Positions 12,336-64,000 of a stretch of DNA of 64,000 nt are shown one piece after another. This stretch comes from Spirogloea muscicola (taxonomy: Eukaryota). The notes beneath the pieces are model-generated. The model did no database searches. It was not told where the DNA came from and saw only the letters and a program-made list of their open reading frames with translations. The translations under genes were made by a program, and so were the position numbers. The stretch is from NCBI GenBank assembly GCA_009602725.1, contig WELB01000021.1, positions 679,502-743,501 of the forward strand. Direction: 5' to 3'. Within the stretch, counting starts at the first letter, position 1; each line of letters opens with the position of its first letter.

Positions 12336-12529
12336 CCTGGAGCCGTGCCCCCCACGGCTCTTCTCCGCCCGAGGGCCCCCGGCCCGGTGAGGTGGCGGAG
12401 CCCTCCTCCACCCCTGCCACTCAGGCCAAGCAGTAGGCAGTACGGAACAAGAGGAAAGATTAGGGCGATGATTGGCTGTTATTGGCCAGCCCAGAAAGAG
12501 ATTGAACGCAAAGAATTAAATCTAAAGAA

Positions 12530-23599: not shown

Positions 23600-25533
23600 C
23601 TAGATTCGCATGTTCATGAAGTCTAAGGGATCTAGTGGTGCAAAGCCATTGTCTGCCTCTGCTATTTCTCCAAAAGGCAGACGCCACTCATATTGCGCGT
23701 GCAAGACATGTGCCTTCTCTGGACCTGCTTCTGACTGGGAGCTGAAGAAGGAGTCCACAGCCTCAGGTTTCGGGGAAAATTCCAGGGACTTGCTGGAGCT
23801 TGGTGTAGAACTGTAGTCCTCCATGTCCTCCGCCCCTGAGCCCGCTGCAGCGACATCAGCAAAGCCTGCATCCTGTCCCTCGAAGATTGCTGCGATGTCC
23901 ATGTTGCAATTTACATCAGCTTTGTGTGTGTACTGCTCACATGTGATGCATGGTAAGACGGGCCAACAAGCTGATGCTTTTGCAGTTGCTGGTGCAGGCC
24001 CCAAAGTCTGATGATCTCTGAACTGAGTAAGTGCGGCAGTGCTTGGTCCTCCTCTAGGTGGCGGATCAGGGCCTCTTGGACCGATGTCAATGGGTGGGCC
24101 CCCAGCCTGGCTGATAAGAGAGATCGTGATTGGGTTTGGGGGGGCAGCGTGGTTATGGTAGCCTCGATAAGTGACAACGAAGACATTTTTGTCGTCCTTC
24201 GAAACTTCCACTTGCTTCTTCGCCAGGCATGGCTGGTCAGAGTCCTCCAGACTGCAGCGGAAGTAGTTGCGGGGATTTGGCGAACTCTTGATGGGCTTCT
24301 TGCCGTATTTGCGCCAACTCCAACCATCGTCAGGAATTTGCTTCTCGTCGAAGGTTTCTGGAACTATCACTTGGATCTGCTTAGTGGGCACCTTTGGCCT
24401 GCAGAAGTTAGACTTTGCAGGTGTTAGTACACATGTGGATTGGAAAGTTATCACAGCTAGCTGCTCACACACCGTGGCAGCAATACATATTCGGATGACA
24501 TCCTATGTCGACGCAAGGAGACAGTGTTGTCGTATCGGTGTTGATGAGCTCAGACTTTTTGTGGTGAGCAAGCTCATGCAATGTGGCTCATTGCAATTGA
24601 CCACACCCAAGTCCATGTAGCACTCACTTTCTTGGAGATCGGCGACTGCCATCCATCCTGTCGCCATTGGAGCATCTGGTCCGCTTGACTCCGGCATTCT
24701 CGTCAGAACACTGGTTTAGAACATCAGCTCCCCTGTTGCAGTGTGATTCATTCGACGCCCTCTTGGCACTGGCTTGCATACGGACATCCTCCTCCATCTT
24801 TATGGGTAGCAGGGCTGAGTTTTCATCGAGGTAAGCCGTGCTCTTCTCACTGGAGGTCGTTGATGCAGGCATTGGGATTGGGGGTGCCATATGTGGGCCA
24901 AGGGCGTTGCTGCTGCATGCTCCCAGATGGACCCCTCGATCAAGGGCGAGAGAGGGAGAAGAAGCATGTGTACTGGCAACTCCCAGATGGCCTGCAAGGA
25001 CACGGAACTCCAGTAACTGCTCTTGGGCTTGCAGCAATGTTTTCGTGAGATCCACCAGCTGCCTCTGCCCAGTGCTTGCTGTACTCGTGGCTGCTGATCC
25101 CTTGAAAGACCTGCAACAAGTAGAAGAAGACGAAAAATTGAAGGAACCGCGAGCGCCAGTCATTGAAGCAGGCTCATCGCACAATGTAGCACACTCAAGC
25201 ACAGCAAGGTTCCAGGTAGCAACTGAGCAGATGGGCGCATATGTTCAAGCAGCCGTGTGGAGGGTTTTACAGAAGACTCGCTGCTGCGAAGGGCAGTCTT
25301 GCGCCTGAGTGCGGAGAGCTGTACCTAGCTGCAGCTGCGCATGGTGCCAACTGAGCGAGGTCGTGGCACATCTCCTGCTGGCAAGCAGAGCTCCTCTGAA
25401 CCCACAGCAGCTCGGCGAGAGCCGCGAGGTTGCCGACGGTGAGGCTGAGGGCGGAGGCGGCCTCCATGAGCAGGCGCGCGGCGTGACCTGGGTCCGAGCC
25501 GCCGGCGGGGCTGCCTCGGGGCAGCCGCGCCAT
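23600..25533 (-). CDS. WRKY: WRKY transcription factor, single domain, WRKYGKK variant with C-X8-C-X23-H-X-H finger
   Basis: The domain reads DDGWSWRKYGKKPIKSSPNPRNYFRCSLEDSDQPCLAKKQVEVSKDDKNVFVVTYRGYHNH. The last exon 24398-23600 joins in frame to exon ~25222-24628 via GTGAG/CAG. The join to the first exon (ATG 25533, donor ~25324) appears out of frame, so the 5' model is uncertain. Confidence 0.9.
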
Positions 25534-28234: not shown

Positions 28235-29965
28235 TCGCAGCAGCAGCAGCAGAGAGGCGCAGCTCAAACTCCCCGCCTAGGAGCACACTCCATAGGTCCA
28301 TATGGCGATGTAATAGGCTGCAAGGCTCTGCGTGTGTAACATCACCAGAGGCATTCACTTGGCATCCGACACATTGACCAGAACATTGTACAATCCGATG
28401 CTGAGGACTACAACTGCAGTGGTCAAGCGTGGCTCGATGCTCACGCTTCAGTAGATGCCGTGTCGCTTGATGGTACACCAAGGATGTAAATGACGGCTGA
28501 ATCACCCCTGAGCTTAATCCACACTCCATTCCTGAACAATTGACCACGACAAGAGTACCATACTTTATGGCTGCTCCTGCTTGTGAAGCTTCAAGCGCCT
28601 CCACTTGCTATATGACAAGTGTGAACATTCTTAGAGGCAGCCCATGCAAGTGAGTTACCTTCTTGACAAATCTGCAGCAACTCACATTGGCAAACCACTA
28701 GATGACAGTGTCATTGTTCCAATGGCACACAGAATGCATGATCTAGAAGCATATAGCACTTGCATCCATGCAAGAAAAGCACTTGCTCTCTACGAGAAGT
28801 AGTAACCTTCTTGAAGTCCTGCTCTTTGTTGTGGTATGAGAAGGTTATATTTATCAAGTGCGCACATTCTTAGAGGCAGCCCATGCAAGTGAGTCACCTT
28901 CTTGACAAATCTGCAGCAACCCACATTGGCAAACCACTAGATGACAGTGTCACTGTTCCAATGGCACACAGAATGCATGATTTAGAATCACATAGAACTT
29001 GCATTCATGCAAGAAAGCACTTGCTCTCTACGAGAAGTAGTAACCTTCTTGAAGTCCTGCTCTTTGTTGTGGTATGAGAAGGTTATATTTATCAAGTGCG
29101 CACATTCTTAGAGACAGAAAATGCAAGTGAGTCACCTTCTTGACAAATCTGCAGCAACCCACATTGGTAAACCACTAGATGACAGTGTCACTGTTCCAAT
29201 GGCACACAGAATGCATGATTTAGAATCACATAGAACTTGCAATCATGCAAGAAAGCACTAGCTCTCTACGAGAAGTAGTAACCTTCTTGAAGTCCTGCTC
29301 TTCGTTGTGGTATGAGAAGGTGGTCGTGACTATCAGAAATCTCAGCACCGCCGCTGCAGCAGCGGCGGCGAGGCGCAGCTCACACTCCCTGCTCGAGATC
29401 ACACTCCATACTTTCATATGGCGATGTAGTTGGCTGCAGAGACTCTGCGTGTGTAACATCAACAGAGTAATCTATAAAGCATCCGACACACTGACCAAAT
29501 ACTTGCATTTTTCGATGCTGAGGGACTGCAATGCAGTAGTCAAGCGTGGCTCGATGCTCACGCTTCAGTAGATGCTGTGTCACTTCATGATACACCGAGG
29601 ATGTGAACCACGGCTGGATCACCCCTGACAGTTGACCACGACAAGAGTACCATACTTTGTGGCTGCTCTTGCTTGTGAAGCTTCAAGCACCTCCACTTGC
29701 TGCAATACTCCACTTGCTGCAATACAAGTGCGAACATTCTTAGAAGCAGTCCATGCAAGTGAATCACCTTCGTGACTAATTTGCAGCAACTCACATCAGA
29801 AAAGCACTAGATGACGGGATCACTGTTCCAATGGCACACACAATCCATGAACTTGAATACCACAGAACATGCATTCATGCAAGATAAGCACTTGCTCTAC
29901 AGAATTTAGTAACCTTCTTGAAGTACTTCTCTCTGCGGTGGGATGAGAAGGTGGTCATGTTCATC
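28235..29965 (-). repeat. Compound tandem amplification A-B-B-B-A'-B' of a probable gene segment
   Basis: A ~238 bp unit B occurs at ~28616, ~28855 and ~29093, and diverged at ~29726. A ~380 bp unit A occurs at ~28235 and ~29355. On the minus strand B spans a GT...TGCAG intron-like segment. Confidence 0.9.
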
Positions 29966-32469
29966 AGAAAACCACATGGCCAGCTTAGATGCAAATTTCG
30001 CTGAGAGTTGGTGATAAATTCTTGCCTTTCCTGATTTGTGTATAATATGCTTCTGCAGACAAGAGTTCTGACCAGAACATAATAAACGTCTATCAGGAAG
30101 TCACGTCAGCTAGCACGTCTTCTGACAGTACAAATGAGTCATGGAAGCTGGGGTGCATGATTACATCGCTAAAACAATTGCAGAGCTTACTGTTCTTCTT
30201 CTTGCTTCAGGCCTGGAGAAGCAAACAGCACCATTATTGTTCTTGGGTCACTTCTGTTGTTGCAAGACAAGGTGGAGCCAGCTGTTCGCAAGTCTTTTGA
30301 CTGCAGCTGCTGTGAAAGCTCGCAAACGATTAGCTGTACCTTAAAACCTTAAAAATCCCCCAAACTCAACAGTACTGAAGGGCACTGTCGACCAGATTTG
30401 TAATGACCCGCAAGGCATTACACAAGAGGTTAAAGTCTGTCTGACAACAGTCGATGTGTTCTTGATACAGAATGCTTTGCTTACCGCACAGCAGCACAAG
30501 GAACAGTCGTTCATCAACCCTCCAGATTCCAGCCTACCGTAATGCACTCCGACAATCTTATGCAATCTACTGTCAATCAGTAGATGATGCTTAAGAGGAT
30601 GAAGTTGACATTGCATAGAGCCACAACTACCCGGCAACGAGCTCTATGGAACTCTATGGTAGGTGGTGGGACGTGCTAGGCTGCTATCTGGCACCTTCCA
30701 ACGAGCAGCCTTACCTTCGTTGGGTTCGGCACCGCAAGCTGTTGTCTGTGTGCGACACATGCTGTGAGTTGCAGTGTGGTGACGATTTAGGAGCTGCTGA
30801 AGCCAGATTGGCGAACACCAGGGCCAGCATATGTTGGTTGGCCATGCACAAGAATATTGTCACGTCCATGTATTGTTGCATACTCACCTGCACACTCTTC
30901 GTGCAGATATCTCCACAGGTTCGCTACACGCAACTGCTCGGACCTCGCTACACTTTCAAAGCAGAAGCAGCGGACCCAGCAGTCTCTGGCCAGACTCCTC
31001 TCAGCCGAAGGGGCTGCCCTTCAGACCTGTGATGACAAAGACGCGAGCTGTCTGCTCTGCTCCAGTAGCTGAAGAATCTGAATGTGAGCACATGTGAGCA
31101 TGTGTAAGCTGGGCTGCAGGTCTGGATGGCATATTGTGTGCTGGACGTAAGCATATGTCTTGAGACTCCTTGACTACGAAGTGCTCCGGCACAACTGCTT
31201 AGTACTGGCAGACTTCTTGAGCAAGCTGGGTGACTGCAGCATGTGCTGAGCAGGATGGCTGTGTATTGCCGCTGGCAGTCACCTGCAGTTTGTGGCTCTT
31301 AAGAGACAGGTAGTCAGAAGTTTCGGCCCTCTTCCTAGGACACGCTGGATGCCCTCAAACAAAAGGTGAAGGCACTGGCAAGCCTGCTGGCGGTGCTTGC
31401 AGATCTGGCTACGACCGCAATCAGCACATGTCTGGGTGCTTCTGCAGGCGGGCCAGTCCTTGGACGGCTGAATCAGCTTGTGCACCTGCAGTGTAGGCGA
31501 GGCGAGGCTGGCTTTTCCATCTGATCACCCACAAGCAGGAGAGGTGCATAGGCACATGCGAGCCTTAAGAGGGAAGGTTCTTCTCTGCAGAAGGCGGTGG
31601 CTGAGGAGAGCCAGCCTGAAAGCATGGACATATGTCTGCAAGGAGACCATAACAAGTGGACATAACCTCTGCATAGCGTGTGGCTGTTGCAGTAGCCACT
31701 TATGCCCTCGAATCACGACTGCCAGTCAGATTACAATTGCAGCAGGGAAGAGAGTTGCCACGCGAGTCCCAGAGGCGGCAGTCAAGGACAGAAGCTGCCA
31801 TGAAGATGCAGAATGCCAGCTTGTGAAATTCAAGAAGGGCTGCGTACGATACGAGGAGCGTGGATGCTGGCAGAGGCGCCGTGCACGCCGGAGTAGATGT
31901 GTGCATAGTAGATGCATGATGGAAATGGGCAAAAGGCCGTTAGCATCGGGAATTGCCCCGCGAATTGCCTCGAGACAATTCTCGCAGCCAATTGCGCACC
32001 CGCCTCACCACCAATCAGTGAGGGACTCACACTGTTGTGAGACTGAAGCGGCTGGCGGCAGCGCATGTGACTGCCATGTATGTGCGTCCATCCTCTCTCT
32101 TTCCTTCTCATAGCCTCCTCTCACAAGCCCAGTCACTCGCGCGCTTCAATCCATGCCGGTCCTCAGACTTGGTGAGACGTGCCTGTATCCGCAGTAACCG
32201 AATGGTGGTCATGACTGCTTGTTGGTACACGTCGCATGACCACCCCGATCGAGCTCAAACTGCTCAGCGAAAGCGCGGGAGGCTCCAGCAACCCCCCGTC
32301 CGGGCAACGACCGCACGGCAAGCGGCTGTGGGCGGTGCTGGCGCAGCAGGAGCCGGGAGGGACCCGCTTGGCCCGGCCGGCCGGCGGGCTGGCGGAGGCC
32401 CTCTCGCCGTGCAGGAGCCCGCCCGCCTCTTGGAAGCAGCTCTTTCAACGTAAGAAGTGTACAAGGTCT

Positions 32470-33480
32470 AGAAGGGCCGGCCTTGGATTCTTGTCGGGAC
32501 GACCGCGGAACGACCGCCGAAGGACGACCCGGCCTTGACGACCTCCAGAAAGACGGCGAGCATGAGCGGGTGCTCCTTTCTCTCTGCGCCATCCGGCTCC
32601 TTCAGACCTTGTCCATTCCTTTGGGCTGGCCTCTCACAGCCACCAGTCAATTGGGCCGCGCTTTCTTTCTCTCGGCCCCTTAGGACCTCTGTCGATCCCG
32701 TTTTGGGCTGGCCTTTCACAGCCATCGCCCCATCCTGGTTCTTGTAGTCTTGGGCTGACCTTTTCAAAGCCGTCGCCTTTCTCCAACTTACCTCTCCCTT
32801 TTCCGGTGCGTTTCCAGATGCATGACTCCAATGCTGAGTGTCGGTCATCGAACACCCATTCTGAAGTCACTCGCAGAGCTTGTGAAGTGAGCGCATCTTG
32901 GCACTTTGGCCTGTGTCCATCCTTTCCGGGATGGCTTTTCACAGCCCTCGCCTCCTTTGGTTCATTTCTTTTCTGGGCTGGCCCTTCACAGCACTTGCCC
33001 TCTACTGGAAGAGTCTCTCTCTCCCTTTGGAAAAGTCTACTTCTTCTCTTCGCTAAAAAAATTGATAGATGCTGTCCCAAAGGGGGAAGGCTGTGAACCA
33101 GCCAGCCCAACACAAATCTGACAAGGTCCGGTGGGGCCAGAAAGCGCTTTTCCAGAGCTTTCAAGGGAGGTTATACAGAGGACTGAGAAGGGCAGGCTTA
33201 AAAAAAGGTCTGTAAGAAGTGTCTGCGAGGAAGCCGCAACGAGGACAAACCCCTCAGCCTTGCGAGCGGCCGCTCTACAGTGAGAGGGCCGGAGCGGGCA
33301 TGTACAAGGCAAATGTAGTCGCGAACGCACGTTGTCGAGGTCCACTGCGATCGTTGGCTACCTGCTGGATGCTGAGCTGGCGTCGCCGCTCCCTTGGGCG
33401 CGGCGCAGCAACATGGCAGCAGGAGTGTGATCGCTGCCCCTGTCGCGGCTCCGCTCGTGCTGCCGCCGGCTGAAGCCCAA
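32470..33480. mobile_element. Island of CRE-like tails and a minus-strand C-terminal fragment
   Basis: Tail modules lie at ~32623, 32705, 32927, 32975 and 33088(-). The minus frame ...HCRAAARKAEGFVLVAASSQTLLTDL resembles the C-terminal SDL motif. Confidence 0.6.
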
Positions 33481-38833: not shown

Positions 38834-41800
38834 ATGGCGGCGGCGGCGGCGGTGGTGCCGGCGGCCGCGGGGCCCCAGCTGTGGCTGCCGACAGGGGGCC
38901 CCACCTGCGCCCGCCTGCTGGCCTGCGCCGCGCTGGTCGTCATCGCTGCCGCCACCGGCCTGCCCTACCTTCTCGTCGGCGACGGCTTGCAGGTGCCGCC
39001 GCAGACGACTACCGGCCACCCTGCCAGCCTCATCCCATCTCGGGCGCAGCAGCTCATGCTGAGCAGAAGGAGGCCCCGTCCCGCAGGCGAGCCGCGCGGC
39101 GTCGCTGGTGGCGGCGGCGCGTGACGCCGCAGGACCGCCTTCCCCGTCTTCCGAGCCCACGCTGTTGGACGAGGAGCGCATCTCCACTGTGCACAGCGCC
39201 AAGGTGGGCGGCGCATCCTGCCGTTGCCAGCGCCTGATGATAGCATGGCAGAAAGGCCTGCGTGCTGCCGGCGTGTCAGCTCGGATCGTCTGCAGCGTCT
39301 GCAATGCTAAACTCTAAACCCTAAACCTTAGAGCCTACTAGCATCCCGCAAGCATTGGTTGCCTAGTACAGAGTGCAGCTCTCGCCTAGTCTGCAGCGTT
39401 CCCAAGCTTTAGCTGTACATCAGTGTGCTGGGCGCCCATACAGTCAGGCGACTGGCTTAGGGCTGGCTTTCACAGCCCCAGCCCCCTCGTCGGGCCCGCC
39501 TTCCTGAAGGTGGGCCTTGAAGCGAGCCTGCTTGAAGATCATCTGGGGAGGTGGCAGGTGAAGCTCTATAATTGTGCGCTTAGACCAGACGCGGGGGGGG
39601 GGCTTCAATTTGAAGTAGTGAGGCCCACAGAGAGATAGAGGCCCAGCCCTGCTGCTGCCTGCTGCTGCAGCCCGTCTTTGCAGCCCGTCACTGCAAATCA
39701 TCGCCGGCTTTCTGTGAGTAGTCTGGGGCTGCTCCTTGGGAAGACACTTGCTGGCTTGTGCCCGTGAGGTAAGTCGCCGCATGTCGGCGGCACCTTGGGC
39801 AAGGTATTTCTGCTGCGTTGTGTGCGTAGTGCTTTACTGTGTTGGGGGTCGTTTTCTAAATTCCCAATGACCAGATCCATGAGGACGTTATCAGTCTTAC
39901 CTCTTTAATTAGTGGTGAACTGTCACAGGGGCGGATTGCTGATTCTCTTCGACGGTATTATTACGGTAAGAAGCAACTTGGGCTGGGAAAGCCTTCTTGT
40001 GAAATGTGCTAGTTTGAACAAGCGGGGAGGGGGAATCTCGGAGTGGGAATCAAACTTTGAAAGCACAATGCGCTCAACCAACCAACCTTTTGGACTACAT
40101 CTACACAACGCTGAGCTGCCATTCTACGTGACAGCAGGCCAGAGCGACCAAGGACAGATCTGCGGATCAAAGTCGGGTCAGTAGCCGTCGGTCAGCACGT
40201 GAAAGATTCTACATAACATCGTACATGGACCGGCGGATTCCAAGCCTTCCTGCCAAAAACTAAAGGTAGCCAAGCTTTCTGGAGCAAAGCAAGGGCCTAA
40301 GCTCGCGGCAGACAGTGTAAGAGAGGCTTGCGAACATCCAAGCCCAGGCGCGCAGGCAAGCAAGAAATATCTGGAAGGCAATGGGATGTGGCTGCAACGA
40401 ACACAGCTATAAAGCTGAAGGGCTAGGTCCAGATAACAGGAGTTTCTCCCAATAGGAGGCGATGTCTGTTAAAGGCCAGCCCATAAACGAATGGACAAGG
40501 TCTAAAGAGGCCGGAGAGTGGAAAATTAGTGCTAAACCAATGCCCACGCGAGTGGCTGTGACTTTTGTCCTCAGTCAGTCCTAGTCACAAGTCGCAAGTC
40601 AGAGTAGCTTGCAGCCGGGAAATTGTCAACGTGGCTGCTTCTGAGAAGAAATCAGTTGCAGCCAAAGCACGGCCTGCCCGCAAGTTCCACCGGAAAGCCT
40701 GAAAACGCTGAAGCGAGACTGATAGCACCTAAGAGCGACCCAGCGCACAGTGGCCGGGCTGTTTCACCTTGCGGGCCTTGGCCTTGGTGGGTTGCACGCC
40801 TCACAAGCTGCCGAAGAAGGTCACGTCCTTGGGTACAGTAGGCACAAATCCTTTAAACACCTAGACTTGGCTAGCTTCGTGACAGTAGCAAAGATAACGA
40901 GTTTATGAGTTGAATTTGCGTACATTCACTTTGAAGATGACCACACATGGCAATGCACTGGGTTTGCAAGGCTCAATCCTACGGAGAACCAAAAGACTAT
41001 CAAGGCATGTTGTACTGGCACTCTTCCAGGTTCTTCTCAAAGGGAAATGCCCCGCTGGCGGTTGGGGCTCGACCTCCACCAGCAGCTTGCACTACAAGCA
41101 GTGGCCCAGCGGCAGGATCAGCGGGGTGAGCTGCCACAAACAGGGCTGCGGGCTTGCTGGCTCAGTTGTGTCCTATGGCAGGCCCCTCCGTCTTGCTCTA
41201 GCGATCCCATTGCATCTACGTGCTAGCATGCCTTGGCTACCGCCTCTGGGTACCGACGAGGCTACTCTTTTTCTGCGAGCTCCTGGTCTGGACATTCATT
41301 GGTTGACAAGGGGTGCTGTGCGCCATCTTTAGTAATACTTGCTATTGCTGAGTGTTTTGGGGCTTCTCCAAGATCCCTGTCCAGCCTTTTGTGCTAGCCT
41401 TTCACAGCAAACCTTGTCTTTGCAAGGCTCTTTCCTTCACAAGTCATGACGAACAAGCAAGGAGAGTAAGGCTCCATTGTTGAGTCTTCTCTCTTTGTCA
41501 TGCGCACCAAAGGCCTCAGTGATCTCGATGCTTACCGACTTCAGGTCGTCGTTAAGCTTTTGATGGAAACGACATATTTAAGCGGCTCATATGCAAGGAG
41601 GGTGTCATTGCCAATTGGATATTAAATCTCGTGAGGCTTTTACACGTCTCATTTCCTGGCACTTCGTTTCGGTCTACCAGACGCTTATGAGCAACACAAG
41701 AAGATGCATAACACCAACTCTATCACAGACACCTTTTGTTGCCTCGCGTCAATCTCCTTACTCTTGCCAAAAGCCGCTTGGAAAACACTTACTCGAGAAC

Positions 41801-47209: not shown

Positions 47210-47830
47210 GACATTTAGTGATTGTTCTGGGCTGGCATTTCACATTCCTTTTGGGCTGGACTTTCACGGTCACTCCTTATATTGGACGAGCTGTTCCTTT
47301 TCTGTAAGACGTCAGCAAATGGGCTCTCAGTGACCTTTAATCATTACGTGCAAGTTCCCCGCCTCCTTTGTCCCCCCCCCTCCATTCCTCCTGCCACTGC
47401 TACTGCCTCACTCCTCTAGCTTCAGAAGCGGACGCATGAAAGGCCCCCGGGGGCTCTGCCGGCCCTCCTTTCCCTATTTTCAGAAAGCTGGGCGAGCTCT
47501 AGTTGGTGGCAGAAGGGCTTCGTATCTGCCATCCAGTATTCAGGCGTCGGATAGCAACCTTTATTTTTGACCCGTGGTTACTGAGCGGGTCAATCTATTG
47601 TAATTATGTAGGTCTTAATATGTGCTTGCCTTTGTACTTGGCCGATTGGCCTTCGCTTGTTTCAAATACACAGAATCTTCCCCCCCCCCTTACCTTTGCC
47701 TGCCACTGCTGCTGCTCTACTCCTCTAGCAGCTCCAGTAGCTGCTAGATGCTAGCTGCTACGTCATTTGATGTGCTTTGCCTTCGTACTTGGCCATATTG
47801 GCCTTCAATTGATTCAAATACACGAAAATT
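47210..47830 (+). mobile_element. CRE-like tails (type A degenerate; type B twice) and C-terminal fragment
   Basis: CAGAAAGCTGGGCGAGCTCTAGTTGGTGGCAGAAGGGCTTCG...CCGTGGTTACTGAG matches 2160-2265. Type-B tails lie at 47620 and 47770. Confidence 0.7.
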
Positions 47831-48469
47831 TTCTTAGGAAGATGCTCATTTTTCAAACTTCCGAAAAGAAGGCGAAAACGACAATATGCCTGGAAGCACT
47901 TTCTTAAAATTAATGGAAAGAGGGAATGGGGGACGCCGATGGGAGCCTCACGCGGCCCCCTTCCTTGGTTGACCTGAGGAAACCCGTTGACTATATTACA
48001 ATGGACTCTTCCGGCTAGGCGCCCCTTGCGCAACGAATACAAACAGCTCTGCGCACACAAACAGCAATGAAAGCAAGCGTCTGAGTCGTCCGCCAAGGCG
48101 GTAAGTGAAATTTGCAATATTGGCAGCGCCTGCCAGCCAAGATGCAGCCAGCTAAGTGGCGGTGCAAATGTGAGCCTGACAGAAAAAAGAATTGGCGATC
48201 ACAGCAGACTGTGGATGCTGCAATTATTTGCCGCTTCCCAGGTGTTCAATGCCACGAAAAGCTCAGACAAGACAACAGATGCGCAACTAGTGGGGCTGCC
48301 CTGCTCACTGCAGTACGAAACCGCAACTTATATTTTACCATTTGCACACAAAGACCACCCAGATAGTGTCCCGCTTCTGGTGTGAGTGGGCGTCGCTGCT
48401 TGTGAATACGCCTAAAAAACATGCCGACTTGTCAGCGCCATGGTCCTCGGCACTAAGATGAGAGAAGCG

Positions 48470-49410
48470 CGTCCAAATTGAGAGCAGTGGCTGTGAGAGG
48501 CCAGCCCAAAAGAATGGACAAGGTCTGAAAAGAAAAAGGGCCGGAGGGCACAAGAAGCAAGATACAAACCACGAAGTCAGCAAGTGGGCTCTCAGTAAAC
48601 TCTAGTCAGTAAATGGAGGTCGGAGTAGCTAGAGGGCGGAAAGACGTCGCCCTGACAGAATCCGGAGGCAGTAGCCACGGCGCGACCTGCACGTACGTGG
48701 ACGGCAAAGGCAAGGGACCTCTGCAGGGAGATGGCCAGGCGCATCCGGAGCGCTGATCCTGGGCCTAGCCTCTGCACAAGCAACAGCGCTGCCAAATTGA
48801 CTGGAGGCTGTGAGAGGCCAGCCCAAAGGAATGGAGAATTCTGAAGGAGCCGGATGGCGCAACAAGCAAGGTACGAAGTGCTAAGACGGCAGCAAGGGGG
48901 GTCTCAGTAACCTCTAGTCAGTAATTGCAAATCGAAATAGCTAAGCAGGCGGATAGACGTCGCCCTGTCGGACCCCGGAGGCCGCAGCCAAAGCGCGGCC
49001 TGCACGCAAGTGGACAGCGAAGGCAAGGGACCGCTGCAGGGAAATGGCCAAGCGCATCCGGAATACTTGAGCAAGGGACCCGGCGGCATTGAAGCCAGGC
49101 TGTTTGCTCTGCTGCCCTTGGCGGCGGGCCACTGCACGCCGCGCAAGGCGCTGGAGAAGGTCAAGCCAGCGAGTCCAAAACGCCCCGTGCACGTTGACGG
49201 CGACCGGGACGAACTCGTCCCCCACTAAGTGATCGGCGTGTTTGCGTTCCTTGACGCCCGCCGCTTGGCAGAGAAAGTGCGCGCCCATAGAGAAGATGGC
49301 TGGCAGAGGCCAGCCCGAATGGACAGAATCCAAAGAGCCAAAAAGACACCTAAAAGAAATGACACAGCTAGACACAAGACGACGCAACGGAAAGCTCAGT
49401 AACCCCTGCT
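48470..49410 (-). mobile_element. Three CRE-like 5'-truncated copies in head-to-tail array
   Basis: A tail-only copy (49410-49270) is followed by an RLE copy VKERKHADHLVGDEFVPVAVNVHGAF...RLAISLQRSL...LLTRGY* (49265-48790) and then RMRLAISLQRSLAF...SYSDLHLLTRVY* (48765-48470). Each ends in the hairpin module. Confidence 0.85.
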
Positions 49411-49514
49411 ACGCCGCTCCGCGGACTGCGTAGTCCGCCTCCTCCGACGAGCATTGGGCGCTCCGAGAACCGACGCAGTCGAGTGGTGACGACGTCGGCA
49501 ATTAGCCGGGGCTG

Positions 49515-50220
49515 CTTGGTTTCTTCTTGTGCTTATTTTTCGTAGTGCTTCCCCTGGCCCCTTCGTTTCAATGCTCCCTAGCCTACGCCGTCCACACGCG
49601 AGCAGGCCGTGCTATGGCTGCCGCTGGGTCTCGGCAGAGTGCCTCTTTCCCTGCAACGAGCTACTCCGACCTGATGTTACTGAGCTTCCCTTTGTATCGT
49701 CGGGGTCACTAGCGCAGGTGTACCGTATGCGCTTGGCCGTCTCGCTGCAGAGGTCTATGGCCCACGCGCTGCACCCGCGTGCCGGCAGAGCCCTCGCTGC
49801 TGCCTCTGGCTCTGGCCAGGGGACCACTTCCAGGAGCCTAGCTTCTCTGACCTGCGGCTGCTTAGCAGGGGTTACTGAGTAATTCGTATCTGCTTTGTTT
49901 CTTCTTGTGCTTGTATTTCTTAGCACTTCCCCTGGGCCCCTTCTCGTACTTTGTTCATTCTTTTTTTGGGCTGGTTTTTCCAGCCCCTATCCTCGATGGG
50001 CGAGCCCTTTCTCTTGTGTTTTGTAGTGTTTTGAGGTGTAGTACTTTTTCGGCACCTCTTTCTTTCGCTTTGAACATTGTCCATTCTTTTCGGGCTGGCT
50101 TTGCCAGCCCCTCTTCTCTATGGGCGAGCACTTTCTCTTTCTTTCTTCTTGTCCTTTGTTCATTCTTTTTTGGGCTGGCTTTTTCCAGCCCCTATCCTCA
50201 ATGGGCGAGCCCTTCTTCGC
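49515..50220 (+). mobile_element. CRE-like C-termini followed by three tandem tail modules
   Basis: FPATSYSDLMLLS is followed by a copy of 43-219 ending GGGGTTACTGAG. Hairpins at ~49968, ~50092 and ~50172 are each followed by ATGGGCGAGC. Confidence 0.85.
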
Positions 50221-51795
50221 TGGGGCCCCCAGCCCAGCGCGGTGGCGAGGAGATTGGCGCGCCGGGTGTAAAGGCGGCCATCCGCCCCAGCAGTCAGGGG
50301 CGTGACGCCTCTGCACAAGACGACAAGCGCCGTCGGCCGGTCAACATCACCGGCAGCTCTTGCCCTGATTGCTTCCGACCAAAGTAACCGCGATCTGTTG
50401 TGGGGTAACCGCCGTCGCTGTGGGCCCGCTTTCTCCAACACCGCCCGCTAGAGCCTGGCGCGCGACGTCCGCCTGCTACTCCGATCTCTAGCCTCGGTGC
50501 ACCCGGGCCTGGTGTCAGCCCACGACACCTCATCAGACTCGTCGCGCTTCTCTTTGAAAGCGCCTCTTTCTACTTGCCATGACTCGGCTCAACGAGTCCG
50601 AAAGAGAGGAGCGGAGCATGTTAAAAAAGCATAGAAAAGAAAAAGAGCATGAAAGCATTGGAAGCCAAGCCGAGCCAGGACGTATTGCAGATGAAGTAGT
50701 AAAGAGTGGGGCAAAAGCCTTAGGCTAACAGGGGCTAAGGTGACAGGGCGAAAGCACAACTGAAGGGGGATAATCAGCACTCACGACTGATCACGTACAG
50801 ACTCAAAGGACTAGCCGGAGCACCGCCACAGCTGTCAGTTGCCTGGCTAAGTGCATGCCAAGTGCGCAGACTAATGTAGAGCCACGACAACAGCATGCAT
50901 TTCTGTCCTTGATGCAGCTTAGAACCACTGTACTTCTGATGCGCTTCCATGGCTTCTAAGACTGCAACCATGTGAGGAAGATTGACAAGTATGATGACTA
51001 GCCAGTTTCACTATACTCAGATTTGCGCCATCTTTCAGTAGTACATCTTTGTGTCAATGCTGGCCAAATTTCTGGAATGAAGTGCTGCACATGCTTACTT
51101 AGCGCACCTCATAGGCAGCTAAGGCTTCCTTGTGGCTTCCTTGTATACGCACAGATGACTACTTAGAACCCTACTGTAATCACTAACAATGAAAAGTCAC
51201 CGGTGCACTCTTACATAATGGGGCGCAACATGGACAGAACAATCAAGCAGCATTGGAGCATCGACTTGTCAAATTGCCAGGAGGAAGGTACTTTACTGCA
51301 AGCATCTGCCCCATGACCACTTTCTCAGAGTGAACATAACAGGAAGGACATGTACTCGGCTGCTGCATACAAGTTGTCCTTCGGCTGTCCCAGGACTGGT
51401 GACATGAGCTAACAGGAGTAGTCGTAACTGGAAAAATTTGATCAAAGAGAGTAGCAAACACTCATCAATTACAACCTGGTTACTTCATTGATAAAAGAAG
51501 CACGGCTGAGCTTTGCCGAACAGACTCAAATGTTGACAACTTCCATCAGACATTTTTACGGTACTGCCAAAGCTTCTGCCATACCTGGTCAGCTTAGATC
51601 TACAGAAAATGGCTGTCTTGAATATAAGCTTCAAATACAGGCATCATAACATAGGCAGAAGCAGCAGAAGCTTCTATTCTGTAGTAATTACCTGGCCCCA
51701 ATCAGCTGTATTGACATCTCATTCATGACTCTGCAGATATGACTTGCCCTCTTCTGTACCTTGGATAAAGCAAATGAATGTGGAAAAGATACTGA

Positions 51796-53850: not shown

Positions 53851-54247
53851 CGCCGCGAGCGCAGCGCCCACGCCGACTGCACGTCTCTCCCACGAAGCTG
53901 GCAGGCCGCCGAAGGAGGGGCGGCCAGCTCCGAGCTTTCCGGCCCCTCTGCAGATTGGTCCAGTCTTTTCTTTCTTCCTTTCATGACCGCTGGTCTGAGC
54001 TGGCCCAATGTACTAGCTCCTAAAGAAGTGGCTCTCCTAGGAAAGAATGGCGCGCCATGAGAGAAGAGGGGGCTGGCCAAGCCAGCCCAAGAGTCGAGTT
54101 GACAAGGTAAACCCAAGATTTCAGCTTCTGTTTTTTTTTGGGTGTTGGCCTGCCTGTCTCGTCACGCGGTGCTGGAGAATGCTCACTGGGCAGCTCGAGG
54201 CTTTTCACAGCCCTTGCCGCCTTCTAAGCACAGAAAAGAAACGAAGC

Positions 54248-54524
54248 CTCCAACTCGTTCTCGACGAGGAAGCGGCCCGCTTCTCGACGCCGACGACGAC
54301 GCCGCTGAGGCCAACATCCTTGGTGAAGGTGGTGTCGGTGACGCGGGCCTTGAGCTTGAGGTCCTCGACGCGCCAGGCGGCGGTGGCGATGGCCTCCTGG
54401 GTGTACGAGTTGAAGGCGGCCTTGACGGACGCCCGCCCGGGGCCCAGGTACCGGTCCGTCTGGCCCTCCGACGGGAACGCCTGCAAGTCGTAGTCGTTGC
54501 CCGTGCGGAACGACTTGGCGGCCA

Positions 54525-54525
<1 letters not shown>
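54248..54525 (-). pseudogene. OEP24: OEP24-like chloroplast outer envelope pore, first-exon fragment with frameshift
   Basis: ASVKAAFNSYTQEAIATAAWRVEDLKLKARVTDTTFTKDVGLSGVVVGVEK continues as (P)GRFLVENE after adding one base at ~54278. This matches the OEP24 N-terminal pattern DxKLRAxxTDxT...LxGLxLxVEKPGxFxV. Downstream exons were not seen. Confidence 0.65.
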
Positions 54526-54558
<33 letters not shown>

Positions 54559-54592
54559 NCGGCGGCGGCAGCGGCGGCGGCGGCGGCGGCGG
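54526..54592. repeat. (GGC)n trinucleotide tract containing an N (likely assembly join)
   Basis: Direct reading; N at 54559. Confidence 0.9.
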
Positions 54593-55017
54593 GCGGGGCT
54601 GGCGGGGAGCTGTTTGCCGCCTCCCCCGCTCTGCCATAGCATCTTCAGGCCCCGCAGTCGCTGCTTAGCTCGTAGTTTGGCCCCTTCAAACCTTGTCATT
54701 CATTTCGGGCTGGCTTCTCACAGCCCTGGCACCCATTGGGAGAGCCACTTCTTCTTTCTCGTTGGTGCACCCTAGACCGAGCCTATTTCCTCTCCCTTGG
54801 CTGGGATTCACGCAGCTACGACGGCGGAGGCGTCGACTTCCCGGGTCTCGCTTGCCGTTGGCCCGCGGCCTGCCGGTCGCCCAGCCCTACCGAACCATCT
54901 TGTCAAAATTCCCTTTTGGGCTGGCTTTTCACAGCCCTTGCCGCCACTGGGAGAGCCACTTCTCTCACAATTGCAAGCGCGGCCAGAATAACTGGTGGCT
55001 GGGAGAGGCCAGCCCAA

Positions 55018-55592
55018 ACCGCGCCACAGTCGCCGAGGAGCTCCATGCGGCCTTCCCCACCCTGCTGCCGTTCTTTCGGCTGGCCTACGGCCAGCCCAGT
55101 GATCTCCTATAGCGGCATGGAGCCAGAGGGGTGGAGGTCCTTCAGTCTTCCACGGGCACGCGTCAGGGGGACCCGCTGGCGGGGTTTTTCTACGCGCTGG
55201 CCCACGACCGCGCCCTGAAGGCCACGGCAGCTGCTCACCCGGGCGTCCTCATGCCCACGTATGCCGACGACACCACCCTGGTCGGGCAACCAGACGAGGT
55301 CTTGGCTGCCTTCGCCACCCTCGAGGAGCAGCTGAAGAAGATCCGCCTGGACATCCGAGCGTCGAAGTGCAGCGCTTGGTCTCCACAAGGGTTGCCAGCC
55401 CTCCTCCACCTTCCCTCCTGCTGTCAGACACCAGCCGGGGGCCTCACACTCCTCGGGGTTCCATTGGGCTCACCTACCTTCGTGGACGAGCAGCTGCGCA
55501 GCAAGCTGCAGGAGCACCTCAAGCCGGCGGCCCGCCTCCCTGAGCTGCACGATATGCAGCTAGGGCTTGCCATGCTGACGAGCAGCATAAAC
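55018..55592 (+). mobile_element. CRE-like reverse transcriptase fragment (from just after domain 3 through domain 7)
   Basis: NRATVAEELHAAFPTLLPFFRLAYGQPSDLL*...SSTGTRQGDPLAGFFYALAH...MPTYADDTTLVG...LDIRASKC...GLTLLGVPLGSPTFV. Confidence 0.9.
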
Positions 55593-55783
55593 CTCTTGAT
55601 AAGACCATGGTAAATGGGAGAGCTCTTGCGATGCACCATGTCATGCCAGATAGATTTTATATGTGCAGGGCAGGAAGAGAAGCATTGCAAGTTGTCCCGG
55701 TCCTTTAGTCTGTCATTTCTGCCAGGCCACGTTGCAGTGACATGTATGGATTGCCACTGAGCTGTTTTGTGTGCTTACTCCAG

Positions 55784-57274: not shown

Positions 57275-59321
57275 CTTTTTCGACTTCTCCCACCACTCTA
57301 TCGCCTTCTCCCACCACAAGAGTGGTGGCAGATCTCCCACCACAAGAGTTGTGGGAGAACGAATCTTCTTTTGTCTTCTTGAAGGGATCGCAGACATGCG
57401 CCGTAGAGTCGATGTGCGCCAGGAACCTGCACAAGTAGCAGCCTCGGTTTTAAGAGTGAAAGACGCTTCCAGGAGAGGGCGGTGGCTGGGAGGGGCCAGC
57501 ACAGAAGAAAGAACGAACAAAATTTGATGGGGCCAGGGAAAGCGCTAAAGCTAGCACACATGGTATCAAGCAGCTACGAAATACTCAGTAACCCCTGCTA
57601 AGCAGCCTCAGATGTTTAGGGCCCCTCTCTTACCTTTAGCCTCGAGCTGCCCACGTGTCCGGCACCGCGTGATGGGACAGACAGCTAAAGGCTGAAAGCT
57701 TGGGGTTGCCTTCAATACTTGATCCATTCTACTGGGCTTGCCTTTCGTCTACTTCCCTATGGACCCGGGAAGTGGACGCCTCCGCCGTCGTAGCTGCTCA
57801 AATTCCAGCTAAGGAAATGTCAAAGGGAGTCGACTCGGTCTAGGGTGCAGCCCCAAGAGAAACAGCCCTTCCAATTTTCGGCAATGGCTGTGAGAGGCAG
57901 AAGGCGCGCAGTGCACAATAGTGAAGCGGAGGCCAAATCACAGCACGGCCAGCACCTGCGTGCTGGCCGTGCCGTGCTCTACCCGCAGCCTCTGGCTTTC
58001 GTCTGGGGGATTGCTTCCCGGCTGCTAGTCTTTCGGATTTGCGGCTCCTCACTCGTGGTCACTCGTGACGCCTAGTATCTGCTTTTTGCGGCATCCGGGC
58101 CTTTCCTAACCCGTCCAGTCCTTTGGGCTGGCCTCTAACAGCCACTGCTGTCAATTCGTAAGAGCTGTCTCCTTCACTGTGTCATCCATCCTACCCAAGC
58201 TCTGAGAGTCCTTTTCGGCCCATTCTGACCTTGCTCATTTTTTTCGGGCTGGCTGTTCACAGCCCTCGCCCCCCTTAGGAGAGCCACTTGTCCTTTTGGA
58301 AGAGCTCACTTCTTTTCTCAGTCTAGGGCATTGGCTGTGAGAGGCCAGCCCAAAGAATTGAACAAAGTTGATAGGGCAGGAAGGCGCAGACGGACAGATG
58401 ATTTTCAGTGACTTCTGCCAAAACTTGGCCGCAGACCAGTGCATAAGCTCCGCTTGGCCTCCATTATGGATTATGCCCACCGTGCACAGTCTCCCTCTCT
58501 TAGCTATTGTCCCTTAGCATAGGGCTTCGCTTAGTTCAGGCCCATCGTTTGCACTAGCTTCTGCCTGAATAGAGCATTTGCTCCACATGGCCTCCCTTTT
58601 GTTTCATGTACACCGCGCGTCTTCTCTCCTGGAGAGGAGCAGGTGGTGGTCGAGAACATCCACCCACTTTAAGAAGGTGGCTGGGTCGAGAAGATCGCCG
58701 AACAGCGGATTCACAGGCAGAATGTAATGTGTGGCTTGGGCAAGCTGTGCGAGTATGAGCAAGTAAGTGGCTTGTACTCCGTTGGGCTGGCCTCTCCCTC
58801 TTCTCATAGCCATTGCCCCCATTAGTATAGCTTCTTCTGTCCGAGGTGGGGTGAAGGTTTCTATCTTGAGGGTCTCCTGGGATCGCGGAAGCACTGTGGG
58901 AGATGTGCTAGCAACAGGCACACCGCCACTCCAGTGGAATTATTGTTGGCCGTCAGCAAGTCAGAATTATTTTGACAAGGTCAACAAGGGGCCGGAGAGC
59001 GACTACCACGAAGTTACATCCAAGCGGGGGCGAGAAAAGCAGCTCTCAAAGGGGTGAGGGCTGTAAACAGCCAGCCAGCTTAGACTGTACAAGGTAAGGC
59101 GAGGTGGAGAAGAAGTGACGAGAGGAGAAGCGACTGTTGTCAAGACCACAGCAGGCACCCAAAGGCGAGAGGAGAAGTGACTGTTGTCAAGACCATAGCA
59201 GGCACCCATTGTGGTCTTCAACAAATTGTCACCGGCGCCTTTGGACCTTGTTCATTCTTTGTGGGCGAAATGGCTTCTTCCCAGCCCTCGCCTTTGCACC
59301 TGAGCTGCTTCTCCTCGGCTT
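57275..59321 (+). repeat. ~2 kb direct duplication, copy 1 (mosaic of CRE-like tails and fragments)
   Basis: It is colinear with 61615-63605 from CTTTTTCGACTTCTCCCACCAC to GCTTCTCCTCGGCTT, with scattered substitutions and small indels. Confidence 0.95.
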
Positions 59322-60354: not shown

Positions 60355-60645
60355 GAATGTCGGCGGAGTTCTCCGCTGCCACCGAGAAGCCAGCCTCCAC
60401 CAGGATGCCATGCATCGCATCCCGGAGGCGGTCGTGGGCCGCTGTCCGCTCTCCGCCGTGGGAACAGCGCAGAACAAGAGTGGCCAGCTCCCCAGGCTCG
60501 GCCCCTCGCTCGCCACCTTCGCACTGACGCACACCCTGGAGGAATGGCGGCGGCAGGCCCAGGAGCCGGTGGACGGCACTGCGAAATACCTCGTCCGGGA
60601 GAGTGAGGGCGTCGTTGAGGGGGAGGGCCACGCCGCGGCCCCCAC
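60355..60645 (-). mobile_element. CRE-like post-RT CCHC region fragment
   Basis: GAAAW / ALPLNDALTLPDEVFRSAVHRLLGLPPPFLQGVRQC...VLRCSHGGERTAAHDRLRDAMHGILVEAGFSVAAE matches the C..GG.R..RHD.LRD motif preceding RLE. Confidence 0.8.
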
Positions 60646-61614
60646 AAAGGTCTGAAACGGCCGGAAGGCGCAAGAAGCAAGCAATCTGCAGTGCCGCGGT
60701 TTGCCGCGGGGCCGCACATTTGCGGCCGCGGACGCGGCGCGGTGGCGCGGCACGCTCGGCTGCGTTGTCGTCTCATCGTGGTCGGGAGCGCGCTCCGTTG
60801 CGTCGGGGGTCTCTTCAACGCGCGCGAAGGGCGGGAAGGTGACGCGTCGAGATTCTGTCAATGCCTCCGCTTTGCACGCAGTCAGCCGCTCAAGTCGCCC
60901 GCCGGATGTCCGACGTCGATTCCTACTTATGGTTGTATACCAAAAGGAAGGGTCTTTCTCCTCGTTTCCTCGGCTTTGCGCTTTCCGCCTGATTTGGCCT
61001 CATTTGGCCTCCATTATATTTGAGTGGAAGCGCACGGCTTCCTTCTGTCCCCTTCATCGCTGATTAAAGAAGAAATGAGCGCCATTGTATGCCGGTGGGG
61101 GTTGGGGGCCTGTAGTGTTGACACTTACTGAAGTACAAGGTTCACTAAATCAGACCAATCAAGCTTAGCGGCAAGGTTCCACTTCATCTTGCACACCCTG
61201 CACAATACGATTTGCAGTTTGTGATCTGGTGCTCACAAATAGGCGACTATTCAGGCCAAGTACTGAGGCAAGTCCGTCCTACTACTCGCTCGAGAATGAG
61301 GATGCCCACTGACAGCTTCCATAGGGTCCTACTGACCATTCTAGTACTTGCCCACGCCCGCTAAGTTGGCAAATCTCTTCCTCCCCCGGCGCTACAAGAG
61401 ACCCTTACGTAGTGGAACCTCCACTTGGCAGAGGCTTTCTGCAGCTTAACGTTTTCGAGTTCATTCAGACTACTCAATATGAAAAGTCCCCCGGAATTTA
61501 ATCAAAGCTATGGCGTTGGCCTTAATCGATCCTCTGCAGCAGCTGCAGCACAACTCTGGTCTTGAGAGAGGTAGGCTATGGAGGCTGGGAAGTGACCTTG
61601 ACATGATCTTGACT

Positions 61615-63605
61615 CTTTTTCGACTTCTCCCACCACTTTATCGCCTTCTCCCACCACAAGAGTGGTGGCAGATCTCCCACCACAAGAGTGGTGGGAGAAG
61701 GTATCTTGTTTTGTCTTCCTGAAGGGATCGCAGACATGCGCCGTAGAGTCGATGTGCGCCAGGAACCTGCACAAGTAGCAGCCTCGGTGTCTAGAGTGAA
61801 AGACGCTTCCAGGAGTGGGCGGTGGCTGGGAGGGGCCAGCACAGATGAAATAATGAACAAAGTTCGATGGGGCCAGGGAAAGCGCTAAAGGCAGCACACA
61901 TGGTATCAAGCAGCTACGAAATACTCAGCAACCCCTGCTAAGCAGCCTCAGATGTTTAGGGCCCCTCTCTTACCTTTAGCTTCGAGCTGCCCACGTGTGC
62001 GGCACAGCGTGATAGGACAGACAGCTGAAGGCTGAAAGCTTGGGGTTGCCTTCAATACTTGATCCATTCAACTGGGCTTGCGTTTCGTCTACTTCCCTAT
62101 GGACCCGGGAAGTGAACGCCTCCGCCGTCGTAGCTGCGCAAATTCCAGCTAAGGAAATGTCAAAGGGAGTCGACTCGGTCTAGGGTGCAGCCCCAAGAGA
62201 AACAGCCCTTCCAACTTTCGGCAATGGCTGTGAGAGGCAGATGGCGCGCAGTGCACAATGGTGAAGCGGAGGCCAAATCACAGCACGGCCAGCACCTGCG
62301 TGCCGGCCGTGCCGTGCTCTAGCTGCAGCCTCTGGCTTTCGTCAGGGAGATTGCTTCCCGGCTGCTAGTCTTTCGGATTTGCGGCTCCTCACTCGTGGTC
62401 ACTCGTGACGCCTAGTATCTGCTTTTTGCGCCATCCGGCCCTTTCCTAACCCGTCCATTCCTTTGGGCTGGCCTCTCACAGCCACTGCTGTCAATTCGGA
62501 AGAGCTGTCTCCTTTACTGTGTCATCCATCCTACCCAAGCTCTGAGAGTGCTTTTCGGCCCATTCTGACCTTGCTCATTTTTCTCGGGCTGGCTGTTCAC
62601 AGCCCTCGCCCCCCTTAGGAGAGCCACTTATCCTTTTGGAAGAGCTCACTTCTTCTCTCAGTCTAGGGTATTGGCTGTGAGAGGCCAGCCCAAAGAATTG
62701 AACAAATTTTATAGGGCAGGAAGGCGCAGACGGACATGATTTTCAGTGACTTCTGCCAAAAGTGCGCCGTGCATGAGCTCCGCTTGGCCTCCCTTATGGA
62801 TTATGCGCACCGTGCACAGTCTCCCTCTCTTAGCTATTAGGTCCCTTAGCATAGGGCTTCGCTTAATTCAGGCCCATCTTTTGCACTAGCTTCTGCCTGA
62901 ACAGAGCATTTGCTTCACATGGCCTACCTTTCGTTTAATATACACCGCGCGTCTTCTCTCCTGCAGAGGAGCAGGTGTTGGTCGAGAACATCCACCCACT
63001 TTAAGAAGGTGGCTGGGTCGAGAAGATCGCCGAATAGCGGATTCACAGGCAGAATGCAATGTGTGGCTTGGGCAAGCTGTGCGCGTATGAGCGAGTAAGT
63101 GGCTTGTACTCCATTGGGCTGGCCTCTCCCTCTTCTCATAGCCATTGCCCCCATTAGTATAGCTTCTTCTGTCCGAGGTGGGGTGAAGGTTTCTACCTTG
63201 GGGGTATCCTGGGATCACGGAAGCACTGTGGGAGATATGCTAGCCACAGGCACACCGCCACTCCAGTGGAATCATTGTTGGCCGTCAGCAAGTCAGAATT
63301 ATTTTGACAAGGTCAACAAGGGGCCGGAGAGCGACTACCACGAAGCTACATCCGAGCGGAGGGGGGCGAGAAAAGCAGCTCTCAAAGGGGTGAGGGCTGT
63401 AAACAGCCAGCCAGCTTAGACTGTACAAGGTAAGGCGAGGTGGACGAGGCGAGAGGAGAAGTGACTGTTGTCAAGACCACAGCAGGCACCCGTTGTGGTC
63501 TTCAACAAATTGTCACCGGCGCCTTTGGACCTTGTTCATTCTTTGTGGGCGAAATGGCTTCTTCCCAGCCCTCGCCTTTGCACCTGAGTTGCTTCTCCTC
63601 GGCTT
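61615..63605 (+). repeat. ~2 kb direct duplication, copy 2
   Basis: See 57275-59321. Confidence 0.95.
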
Positions 63606-63699: not shown

Positions 63700-64000
63700 T
63701 CTTCAGTAGAATGGAATGTGGCTCTCCCAATGGGGGCAAGGTTTGTGAACAGCCAGCCATAAAAGATTGACTATCTTCGAAGGGGCCAAAAGCGCTCTCA
63801 GAGCTTGGCCGGTAGGATGTATTACTCAGTAAGCACGAGTGAGGGCCGCAAATCAGAAAGACTAGAAAGAAAGTGGCTCTGCCAAAGAAAATGGGCGAGG
63901 GTTTTAGGGTAGATGACGACGGCCGTGATTGGTCAGCCCAGTAAGGAATGACAATGTCCGAAGGGGCCAAAAAAACATTAAAGCATGAGAAAGTCAAGCT
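63700..64000 (-). mobile_element. Two head-to-tail CRE-like 3' tails
   Basis: Reverse tail modules lie at ~63740 and ~63930, and the minus strand reads SLSDLRPSLVL/TACTGAG at ~63826-63865. Confidence 0.65.

Follow-up and report, generated by a model that had tools for sequence, protein, structure and literature searches.

Non-LTR elements of the restriction-like-endonuclease (RLE) type integrate through target-primed reverse transcription (TPRT), a process that leaves 5'-truncated copies and target-site duplications (TSDs). Zepp elements insert into older copies, and tandem Alu insertions lie as same-orientation neighbours since the tail of an Alu is similar to its target site. Nested tandem arrays of truncated copies are described for Cnl1 of Cryptococcus in passages of PMC9942834, and part of another account groups Cnl1 with MoTeR, SLACS, CRE1/2 and CZAR (PMC12857005). 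In Drosophila, tandem-looking junctions arise through separate insertions with a TSD between the units, or through nesting, according to the portion of 10.1101/158386 drawn on here. ZeppL, as presented in excerpts of PMC9940879, is an L1-type algal LINE that is centromeric and forms clusters of 51-320 kb.

The locus described here, in a 64,000-nt stretch of Spirogloea muscicola DNA (the window), works like a Cnl1-type nest of truncated copies. Cnl1 arrays consist of one family and are subtelomeric, whereas here several diverged families with one module lie between host genes (WRKY, NAC, GXM); no telomeric repeat was seen in the window. The placement of copy D2 beside copy D1 (Table 1) has the form of a Drosophila double insertion, although the Drosophila cases concern other clades (jockey, R1, P element) and mostly one family per tandem (10.1101/158386, cited portion). 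Zepp and ZeppL are comparable as algal LINEs forming local clusters, and the precedent that the initial annotation saw in Zepp holds as a behavioural analogue only, Zepp being an L1-clade LINE (PMC9940879, in excerpt). The elements here carry an RLE region, and no apurinic-endonuclease domain was found in nine relatives. R2 resembles them in RLE-type priming and provides the nearest solved RT structures; it is fixed to one rRNA site, whereas here no fixed site was found and the locus holds no demonstrable product of an RNA-to-RNA jump. Alu differs in its A-rich tail and its use of the L1 endonuclease, against a T/C-rich tail and an RLE here. No published account of RLE/CRE elements in Zygnematophyceae or green algae was found in a search that lay outside Repbase, Dfam, most subscription journals and supplements. 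The families seem undescribed, though they may already figure among the repeats catalogued in supplementary files of algal genome papers.

We read positions 48456-50306 as a nest of six 5'-truncated RLE-LINE copies, four of them inside an older copy, that arose from separate insertions (probability about 0.8). The initial annotation, made from the letters of the DNA, had recognized 5'-truncated copies of different families with a shared 3' module, which the RLE profile matches and 68 module matches bear out. Its description of three minus-strand copies and a plus-strand stack is right as to the modules, three per strand (minus: 48468-48528, 48785-48838 and 49277-49332; plus: 49945-50008, 50071-50132 and 50154-50213), but these belong to one nest and not to two arrays. 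The proposed concatemer architecture gives way to a nest in which host halves resume in register. The parts of the nest and the related sites are collected in Table 1.

Table 1. Parts of the nest at 48456-50306 and related features elsewhere in the window.
Feature	Positions	Strand	Evidence
D1, D-family 3' end (last ~50 codons, 3' UTR, module), separate insertion	48456-48748	-	RLE C-terminal match
D2 TSD copy at 3' end, 13 bp	48768-48780	.	exact repeat of 50307-50319
D2 3' part: RLE C-terminal coding, 3' UTR, module	48781-49272	-	RLE profile 36-39 bits
B3, 148-nt B-family 3' end in D2 coding region, same strand	49273-49420	-	collinear with unsplit B
D2 middle part: second acidic motif of the RLE with its surroundings; one frameshift	49421-49510	-	RLE score gain
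C 5' half (A family), in D2 on opposite strand	49511-49564	+	matches positions 201-255 of A copy 30-352
B 5' half (B family), in C's 3' UTR	49565-49701	+	RLE C-terminal match
A, 310-nt A-family 3' end in B's 3' UTR	49702-50011	+	91.8% identity to copy 30-356
B 3' half with module and tail	50012-50144	+	B minus A collinear across join with unsplit copies
C 3' half with module	50145-50218	+	matches positions 252-323 of A copy 30-352
D2 5' part, truncated end	50219-50306	-	TSD-bounded; adds to RLE score gain
D2 TSD copy at 5' end, 13 bp	50307-50319	.	from 50322 on, summed contig depth is that of the flank
Second nest: D-like copy of ~110 nt (about 58074-58182) within an I-family host	57940-58296	+	expected host-left at 58032-58063, z 9.1
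D-family copy 32585-32664 with 9-bp T/C direct repeat around it, module remnant after	32576-32738	+	direct repeat
Likely third nest: D-like host split by H-family copy (about 12330-12170)	12040-12440	-	halves collinear with D2 freed of inserts
RT fragment, likely same element class	55020-55590	+	RVT_1 E 1.2e-8 at 55113-55610; relatives P0001 71%, P0002 40%
Zinc-knuckle/RLE region fragment	60365-60670	-	RLE profile 45 bits
Family E copies	1790-2350, 5194-5377, 12525-12933, 17099-17245, 40232-40315, 47481-47830		RLE coding end, no module

Judged by their sequence, the copies are 5'-truncated 3' ends of RLE-type non-LTR retrotransposons belonging to several families. Upstream of the module they carry the end of a reading frame, which was matched by a profile built from the C-termini of distant RT relatives; this profile scored 36 bits at 49273-48974, 45 bits at 60670-60365 and less at several other places. 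The RLE pattern, as set out in part of PMC12857005, lies C-terminal to the RT and consists of a zinc knuckle, HD/HN, E, R/K-x-D and D/E. Read by eye, the C-terminus of relative P0003 follows it with near-matching spacings, and the RLE region of D2 has N at the first acidic position and a slightly longer spacer. RVT_1 was found in eight of the nine scanned relatives and the apurinic-endonuclease domain in none, and the solved structures nearest to the relatives' RT profile are those of R2 (9nl3, 9dou; E about 1e-20, best 5e-21), against E 0.006 for L1. The RT fragment in the window is not physically joined to any module-bearing 3' end; as the window holds no full-length element that joins RT and module, the link between them is by homology only. 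From the RT motifs we take CRE clade membership to be likely. Protein searches with the RT returned no named CRE protein among the relatives; those with names are mostly Closterium hypothetical proteins, and the closest WRKY and RT proteins stand under EukProt SM ids. A fixed target of the CRE type, in repeated host sequence, was not seen at the eight reconstructed insertion sites, a small sample that shares none.

Copy lengths run from about 80 nt to 665 nt with variable 5' truncation. The 3' ends are sharp, with unrelated flanks at 50136 and 50218 in 66-151 contigs per run and place (agreement 0.36-0.40); the contigs come from four DNA runs of one sample. In run X1, 30,765 contig records matched 4.5 kb, a figure that shows abundance and is not a copy number. 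A Helitron or rolling-circle array was ruled out by the 13-bp TSD, the variable 5' ends and the RLE coding remnants, and no Helitron-type (HUH-helicase) Pfam family occurred among the 150 of 180 frames scanned. Identity with Zepp/ZeppL was likewise rejected, given the RLE region, an RT profile far closer to R2, and short copies lying between genes.

The shared 3' module is about 64 nt long and gave 68 matches at E<=0.01 in the window, compared with 0-2 weak matches in each of five Markov-resampled windows (best E 0.037) and none in the reversed window. It comprises a T-rich run, a GC-rich hairpin, a weaker second stem and a purine-rich end, and is followed by a T/C tail; TTCT follows complete modules in 24 of 40 flanks, against a background of 14%. 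Between stacked units of different families, module identity is about 80-93%. The layout suggests that the module may have an RNA structure: the named two-hairpin form is paired in 78% of cells with a nearly invariant first stem, while a slid control gave equal or higher covariation, and RNAalifold returned no consensus structure for 34 modules. Two weak matches came from an Rfam scan, both away from the modules, and none from ARAGORN; the module pattern had no match in metagenome contigs or in 80 loci of distant relatives (396 kb; best-segment identity 23-39%). In family E the coding sequence ends in the same RLE region, but the 3' end differs and has no module, which shows that not every RLE family in the window carries one. 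At 1700-1780, four copies of about 20 nt, each of the module's last bases and tail, stand in a row, possibly as repeated false starts of reverse transcription.

The outer boundary of the nest is given by D2, which runs from 50306 to 48781 on the minus strand and is bracketed by a perfect 13-bp TSD while being split by two inserts (B3 and C). This 13-mer occurs exactly twice in the window when both strands are searched, and a repeat of such length appeared in 3 of 3000 random position pairs. The D2 codons directly upstream of B3 correspond to those of an unsplit copy at 13447-13482, and none of 5000 random windows gave as good a match; once B3 is removed, the D2 frame runs on across the join and D2 is collinear with unsplit copies. 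With both B3 and C taken out, the RLE match becomes longer and its profile score climbs from 39.8 to 49.8 bits, a value that 1 of 300 shuffles of the added parts equalled (one frameshift being read as X). The 3' part of D2 has homologs at 13553-13745, 2357-2527 and 12110-12046. For its 5' part, a targeted test against 12440-12335 found weak collinear homology, at a level reached by 4 shuffles and by 30 GC-matched windows out of 3000 each, and in a blind scan of the window the two 5' pieces of D2 had no significant DNA homolog.

The plus-strand inserts show the same register. The halves of C continue each other along A copy 30-352 with a 4-nt overlap, although 580 bases lie between them, and C without B is 92.5% identical to that copy. 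B without A aligns across its join with the copies at 930-1110 and 49420-49273. Contigs carry the joined form 49699>50012 in four runs of one sample, and also the joined form 49560-49564 to 50145-50161; these are unsplit family members at other loci and not an empty allele of this one. Of the tails stacked on the plus strand, the first belongs to A, the second to B and the third to C. D2 precedes B3 and C, C precedes B, and B precedes A.

D1 is a separate copy, and D2 landed right beside its 5' junction. The gap between them is 33 nt and holds D2's own 13-bp TSD; the two copies are 82.8% identical (227 of 274 aligned bases). D1 is flanked by a degenerate repeat of about 20 bp (48749-48767 and 48434-48455) that may be a decayed TSD of about 20 bp; 83 of 19,921 random 35-mers were as good or better, with flanks chosen post hoc. 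At 48749-48780, in otherwise unique DNA, the end of D2's TSD abuts the start of this candidate. D1 was also tried as the outermost host and rejected, as its RLE match did not improve when the DNA beyond 50320 was added, and the depth there equals that of the flank. A 6-nt repeat considered as a TSD around the minus-strand trio falls within D2's coding region.

The inner inserts have shorter flanking repeats: 5 bp with one mismatch for B3 (49425-49421 / 49272-49268), 4 bp for C (49511-49514 / 50219-50222), 4 bp for B (49561-49564 / 50145-50148) and 2 bp for A (49700-49701 / 50012-50013). Taken by themselves, the 2-5-bp repeats of these four and of the insert at 58 kb lack significance: other 4-6-mers came out of an unbiased scan (p 0.06-0.63), and the short TSDs thus rest on the homology-defined junctions. 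The comparison put forward in the initial annotation, one TSD per array against one per unit, is answered in part: a 13-bp TSD surrounds D2 with its inserts and separates D2 from D1, but the inner repeats do not reach significance. Its suggested reading of divergence within the array brought out no age gradient, the inner A and the outer C being 91.8% and 92.5% identical to a third copy.

The initial annotation had taken each downstream piece as a new 5' end. Instead, at three of the four same-strand junctions of the locus (B3>D2, A>B, B>C) the host resumes after the insert, and the fourth (D2>D1) holds an internal TSD. The signature of a template jump, one TSD around the units with none between them and no upstream host half, fits 0 of the 4, which leaves the proposal of multi-template jumping in one TPRT event without a case here. 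Across the window, 7 of 18 junctions represent serial insertion, namely these four and those at 58.2, 32.7 and 12.2 kb (the last two less firm). At the other 11, including both at 2350-2530, neither a host half nor a TSD was found; at the junction at 63865 the upstream part runs out of the window.

For placement statistics, the eight module matches of a duplicated twin were removed (68 to 60), and a uniform null that ignores genes was used. Neighbouring modules lie within 100 nt in 10 pairs against 2.2 expected, within 200 nt in 17 against 7.7 (p=0.0004) and within 500 nt in 38 against 21.4. Same-strand pairs number 8 of 10 at 100 nt (p 0.055), 11 of 15 at 150 nt (p 0.055) and 13 of 17 at 200 nt (p 0.024), and at larger range the bias is not significant (18 of 31 at 300 nt, 22 of 38 at 500 nt). 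The clustering is strong and the same-strand bias modest. Random distances, one of the outcomes that the initial annotation had held against its own reading, do not fit this clustering; as to orientation the departure from randomness is modest and is lost at 300-500 nt.

Among the reconstructed insertion sites are some within the RLE coding region, some in 3' UTRs (roughly 10-80 nt above the hairpin) and some in unique DNA; that of C is G/C-rich and C lies on the opposite strand to its host. No fixed target sequence is common to the eight sites. A pyrimidine comes first in seven of the eight, a count that is partly circular since the start of a TSD is indistinguishable from the tail. A CTTG/TCTTG target motif was considered and dropped, as the flanks that follow module ends show no excess of it (CTTG in 7 of 40, p 0.5-0.6). 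In five 3' UTRs, tail-like trinucleotides occupy 12-34% of positions on the sense strand and 0-4% on the antisense strand, against 7% window-wide.

Several other accounts of the stacks were weighed. In template jumping, the RT would within a single event leave the RNA of one family for the 3' end of an RNA from another, laying down head-to-tail units under one TSD. RNA template jumping is established for R2 (PMC2912911, in the passages cited), and the 11 junctions without a host half or TSD are compatible with it. So is a segment of about 95 nt that starts at the same point after two modules (54755+, 57862-), like a natural RNA 5' end. Among the contig joints listed, moreover, 8 of 15 connect a B tail to a short D-like module remnant at other loci, 1-23 nt above the hairpin. 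These joints, however, fit nesting equally, and they are favoured by the alignment of contigs to the conserved module. With the host's upstream half present at three of the four junctions, an internal TSD at the fourth, and no array with one TSD around two unsplit units found in the window, we regard template jumping as very unlikely. Tandem duplication or misassembly might also have produced stacks: the 58-kb array does have a second copy owing to a 2-kb duplication, the repeats occur in very large numbers, and none among the contigs listed bridges the inner junctions, which tells nothing either way. Yet the stacked units come from different families, and zero-mismatch contigs span D1's 3' junction (47889-48494) and D2's 5' junction (50190-51500). 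The exact resumption of the host halves and the unique 13-bp TSD make misassembly unlikely, and we hold this account to be the least credible, with hardly any weight.

Two further explanations concern where new copies land. An RLE protein that binds module DNA and cuts at a set distance would agree with the conservation of the module across otherwise diverged families, with several sites within about 30 nt above the hairpin, and with a 10-nt stretch, noted by eye, that is common to the sites of A and D2; four of the five RLE clades are mostly target-specific (PMC4640811, cited in part). Against such sequence-specific self-targeting, the sites spread from the coding region to the inside of the hairpin and unique DNA, the candidate motif is not enriched after module ends, and the 60 modules are divided evenly, 30 per strand, with many of them solitary. 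We consider it unlikely. Of the initial annotation's proposal of targeting next to the element's own 3' module, insertion into older copies is retained, but not a fixed spot beside the module. Random insertion, with nests persisting only where old repeats tolerate new copies, is compatible with the nest structure; compared with the explanation that we prefer, it lacks nothing but a priming bias. About a quarter of the window (16,643 of 64,000 bases) is self-similar repeat, no orientation bias is left at more than 200 nt, and neighbours often lie tail to tail or head to head. On the other side stand the 13 same-strand pairs among 17 close ones and, at the locus itself, three same-strand inserts among the four nested ones, two of them in 3' UTRs. 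Random insertion is therefore a serious contender, if still the less probable one.

Under the preferred reading, separate target-primed reverse-transcription events over time would have built the nest. In each event the DNA would be nicked, the U/C-rich tail of the RNA would anneal to the nicked strand, and reverse transcription would stop early. Because the 3' UTRs are T/C-rich on the sense strand only, older copies would offer priming sites mostly in their own orientation, just above the module. A new copy landing there would displace the old tail downstream, where it gives the impression of one more 5'-truncated unit behind the end of the inserted copy. The module is a likely RNA signal that may be bound by a shared reverse transcriptase, and tolerance of insertions in old intergenic repeats probably adds to the clustering. 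Whether there is a tail-priming bias or none, we put at about even odds. More tentatively still, we propose a swarm of very abundant RLE-LINE families, in a zygnematophyte alga, that lost site specificity and kept the one shared module and a U/C-rich tail, with its 3' UTRs acting as cross-family, strand-specific landing pads away from genes.

The locus reflects an ordinary process, nested arrays being already known from Cnl1. Its value lies in showing that stacked retrotransposon tails are here nested insertions, which corrects a tempting concatemer reading. The nesting also gives an order of family activity, D, then the A-type copy C, then B, then A again; with one A-type copy older than B and another younger, the activity of the A family overlapped that of the B family. 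Should the same-strand bias prove true of the whole genome, these elements would be a testable group of RLE LINEs whose targeting works by pairing of the tail with DNA and not by a fixed site. Such a target choice, if true, would bear on the change of early site-specific retrotransposons into dispersed ones, in a likely close algal relative of land plants. The cross-family landing pads, if real, would be a sink that pulls new insertions into old copies and off genes.

The initial annotation reported the same pattern at four further places. The nest at 57940-58296 and the 9-bp repeat at 32576-32738 uphold this; at 2300-2590 no host half or TSD was found, and 63700-64000 is cut off by the window end. 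The nest at 57940-58296 is repeated at 62280-62635 within a duplication (57275-59321 and 61615-63605) whose two units are 92.6% identical and 4.3 kb apart, with an RLE fragment between them. The 2-kb unit starts with a short tandem of a 26-nt unit and contains about nine module-bearing fragments in both orientations; it is either a local duplication or a composite mobile unit. The site at 32576-32738 is likely a nest: 9 of 3000 random pairs reach the length of its 9-bp repeat, a figure that is optimistic as the repeat is of low complexity, and the left part of the host can be aligned weakly. A third nest is likely at 12040-12440, where 4 shuffles and 30 GC-matched windows, out of 3000 each, did as well as the left half. 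At 16397-16966, an H-type minus-strand copy seems to be split just above the hairpin by a plus-strand I copy and another repeat, as a further nest in opposite orientation. The segment of about 95 nt occurs at 54755-54847 (+), 57862-57762 (-) and 62202-62102 (-), with the same start base right after different modules. It has no RLE match and no tRNA or Rfam match, and different LINE tails follow it. The segment could be the head of a SINE whose 5' end is natural, and is the best local candidate for true head-to-tail joining.

The window has a GC content of about 53%, and a Pfam scan of 150 of the 180 stop-to-stop frames of at least 100 aa found coding pieces of WRKY, NAC and IRX15/GXM. The nearest relatives of the WRKY piece at 23603-24502 (-) are at least eight close paralogs of 58-99% identity under EukProt SM ids; from these identities the piece and its paralogs appear to be a lineage-specific WRKY expansion. 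At 54208-54600 (-), the 5' end of a gene, which we assume to resemble the chloroplast outer-envelope pore OEP24, comes after a GGC repeat with the window's single N, and LINE tails start directly upstream. The region 28236-29970 contains a 238-nt unit in three copies and a diverged 600-nt repeat, unrelated to the LINE module. A further element, at 2596-3272, 12957-13371 and 560-946, has inverted ends of about 190 nt (2596-2785 versus 3272-3108) and a LINE module inside; at 2596-3272 it looks like a non-autonomous DNA transposon with a captured LINE piece.
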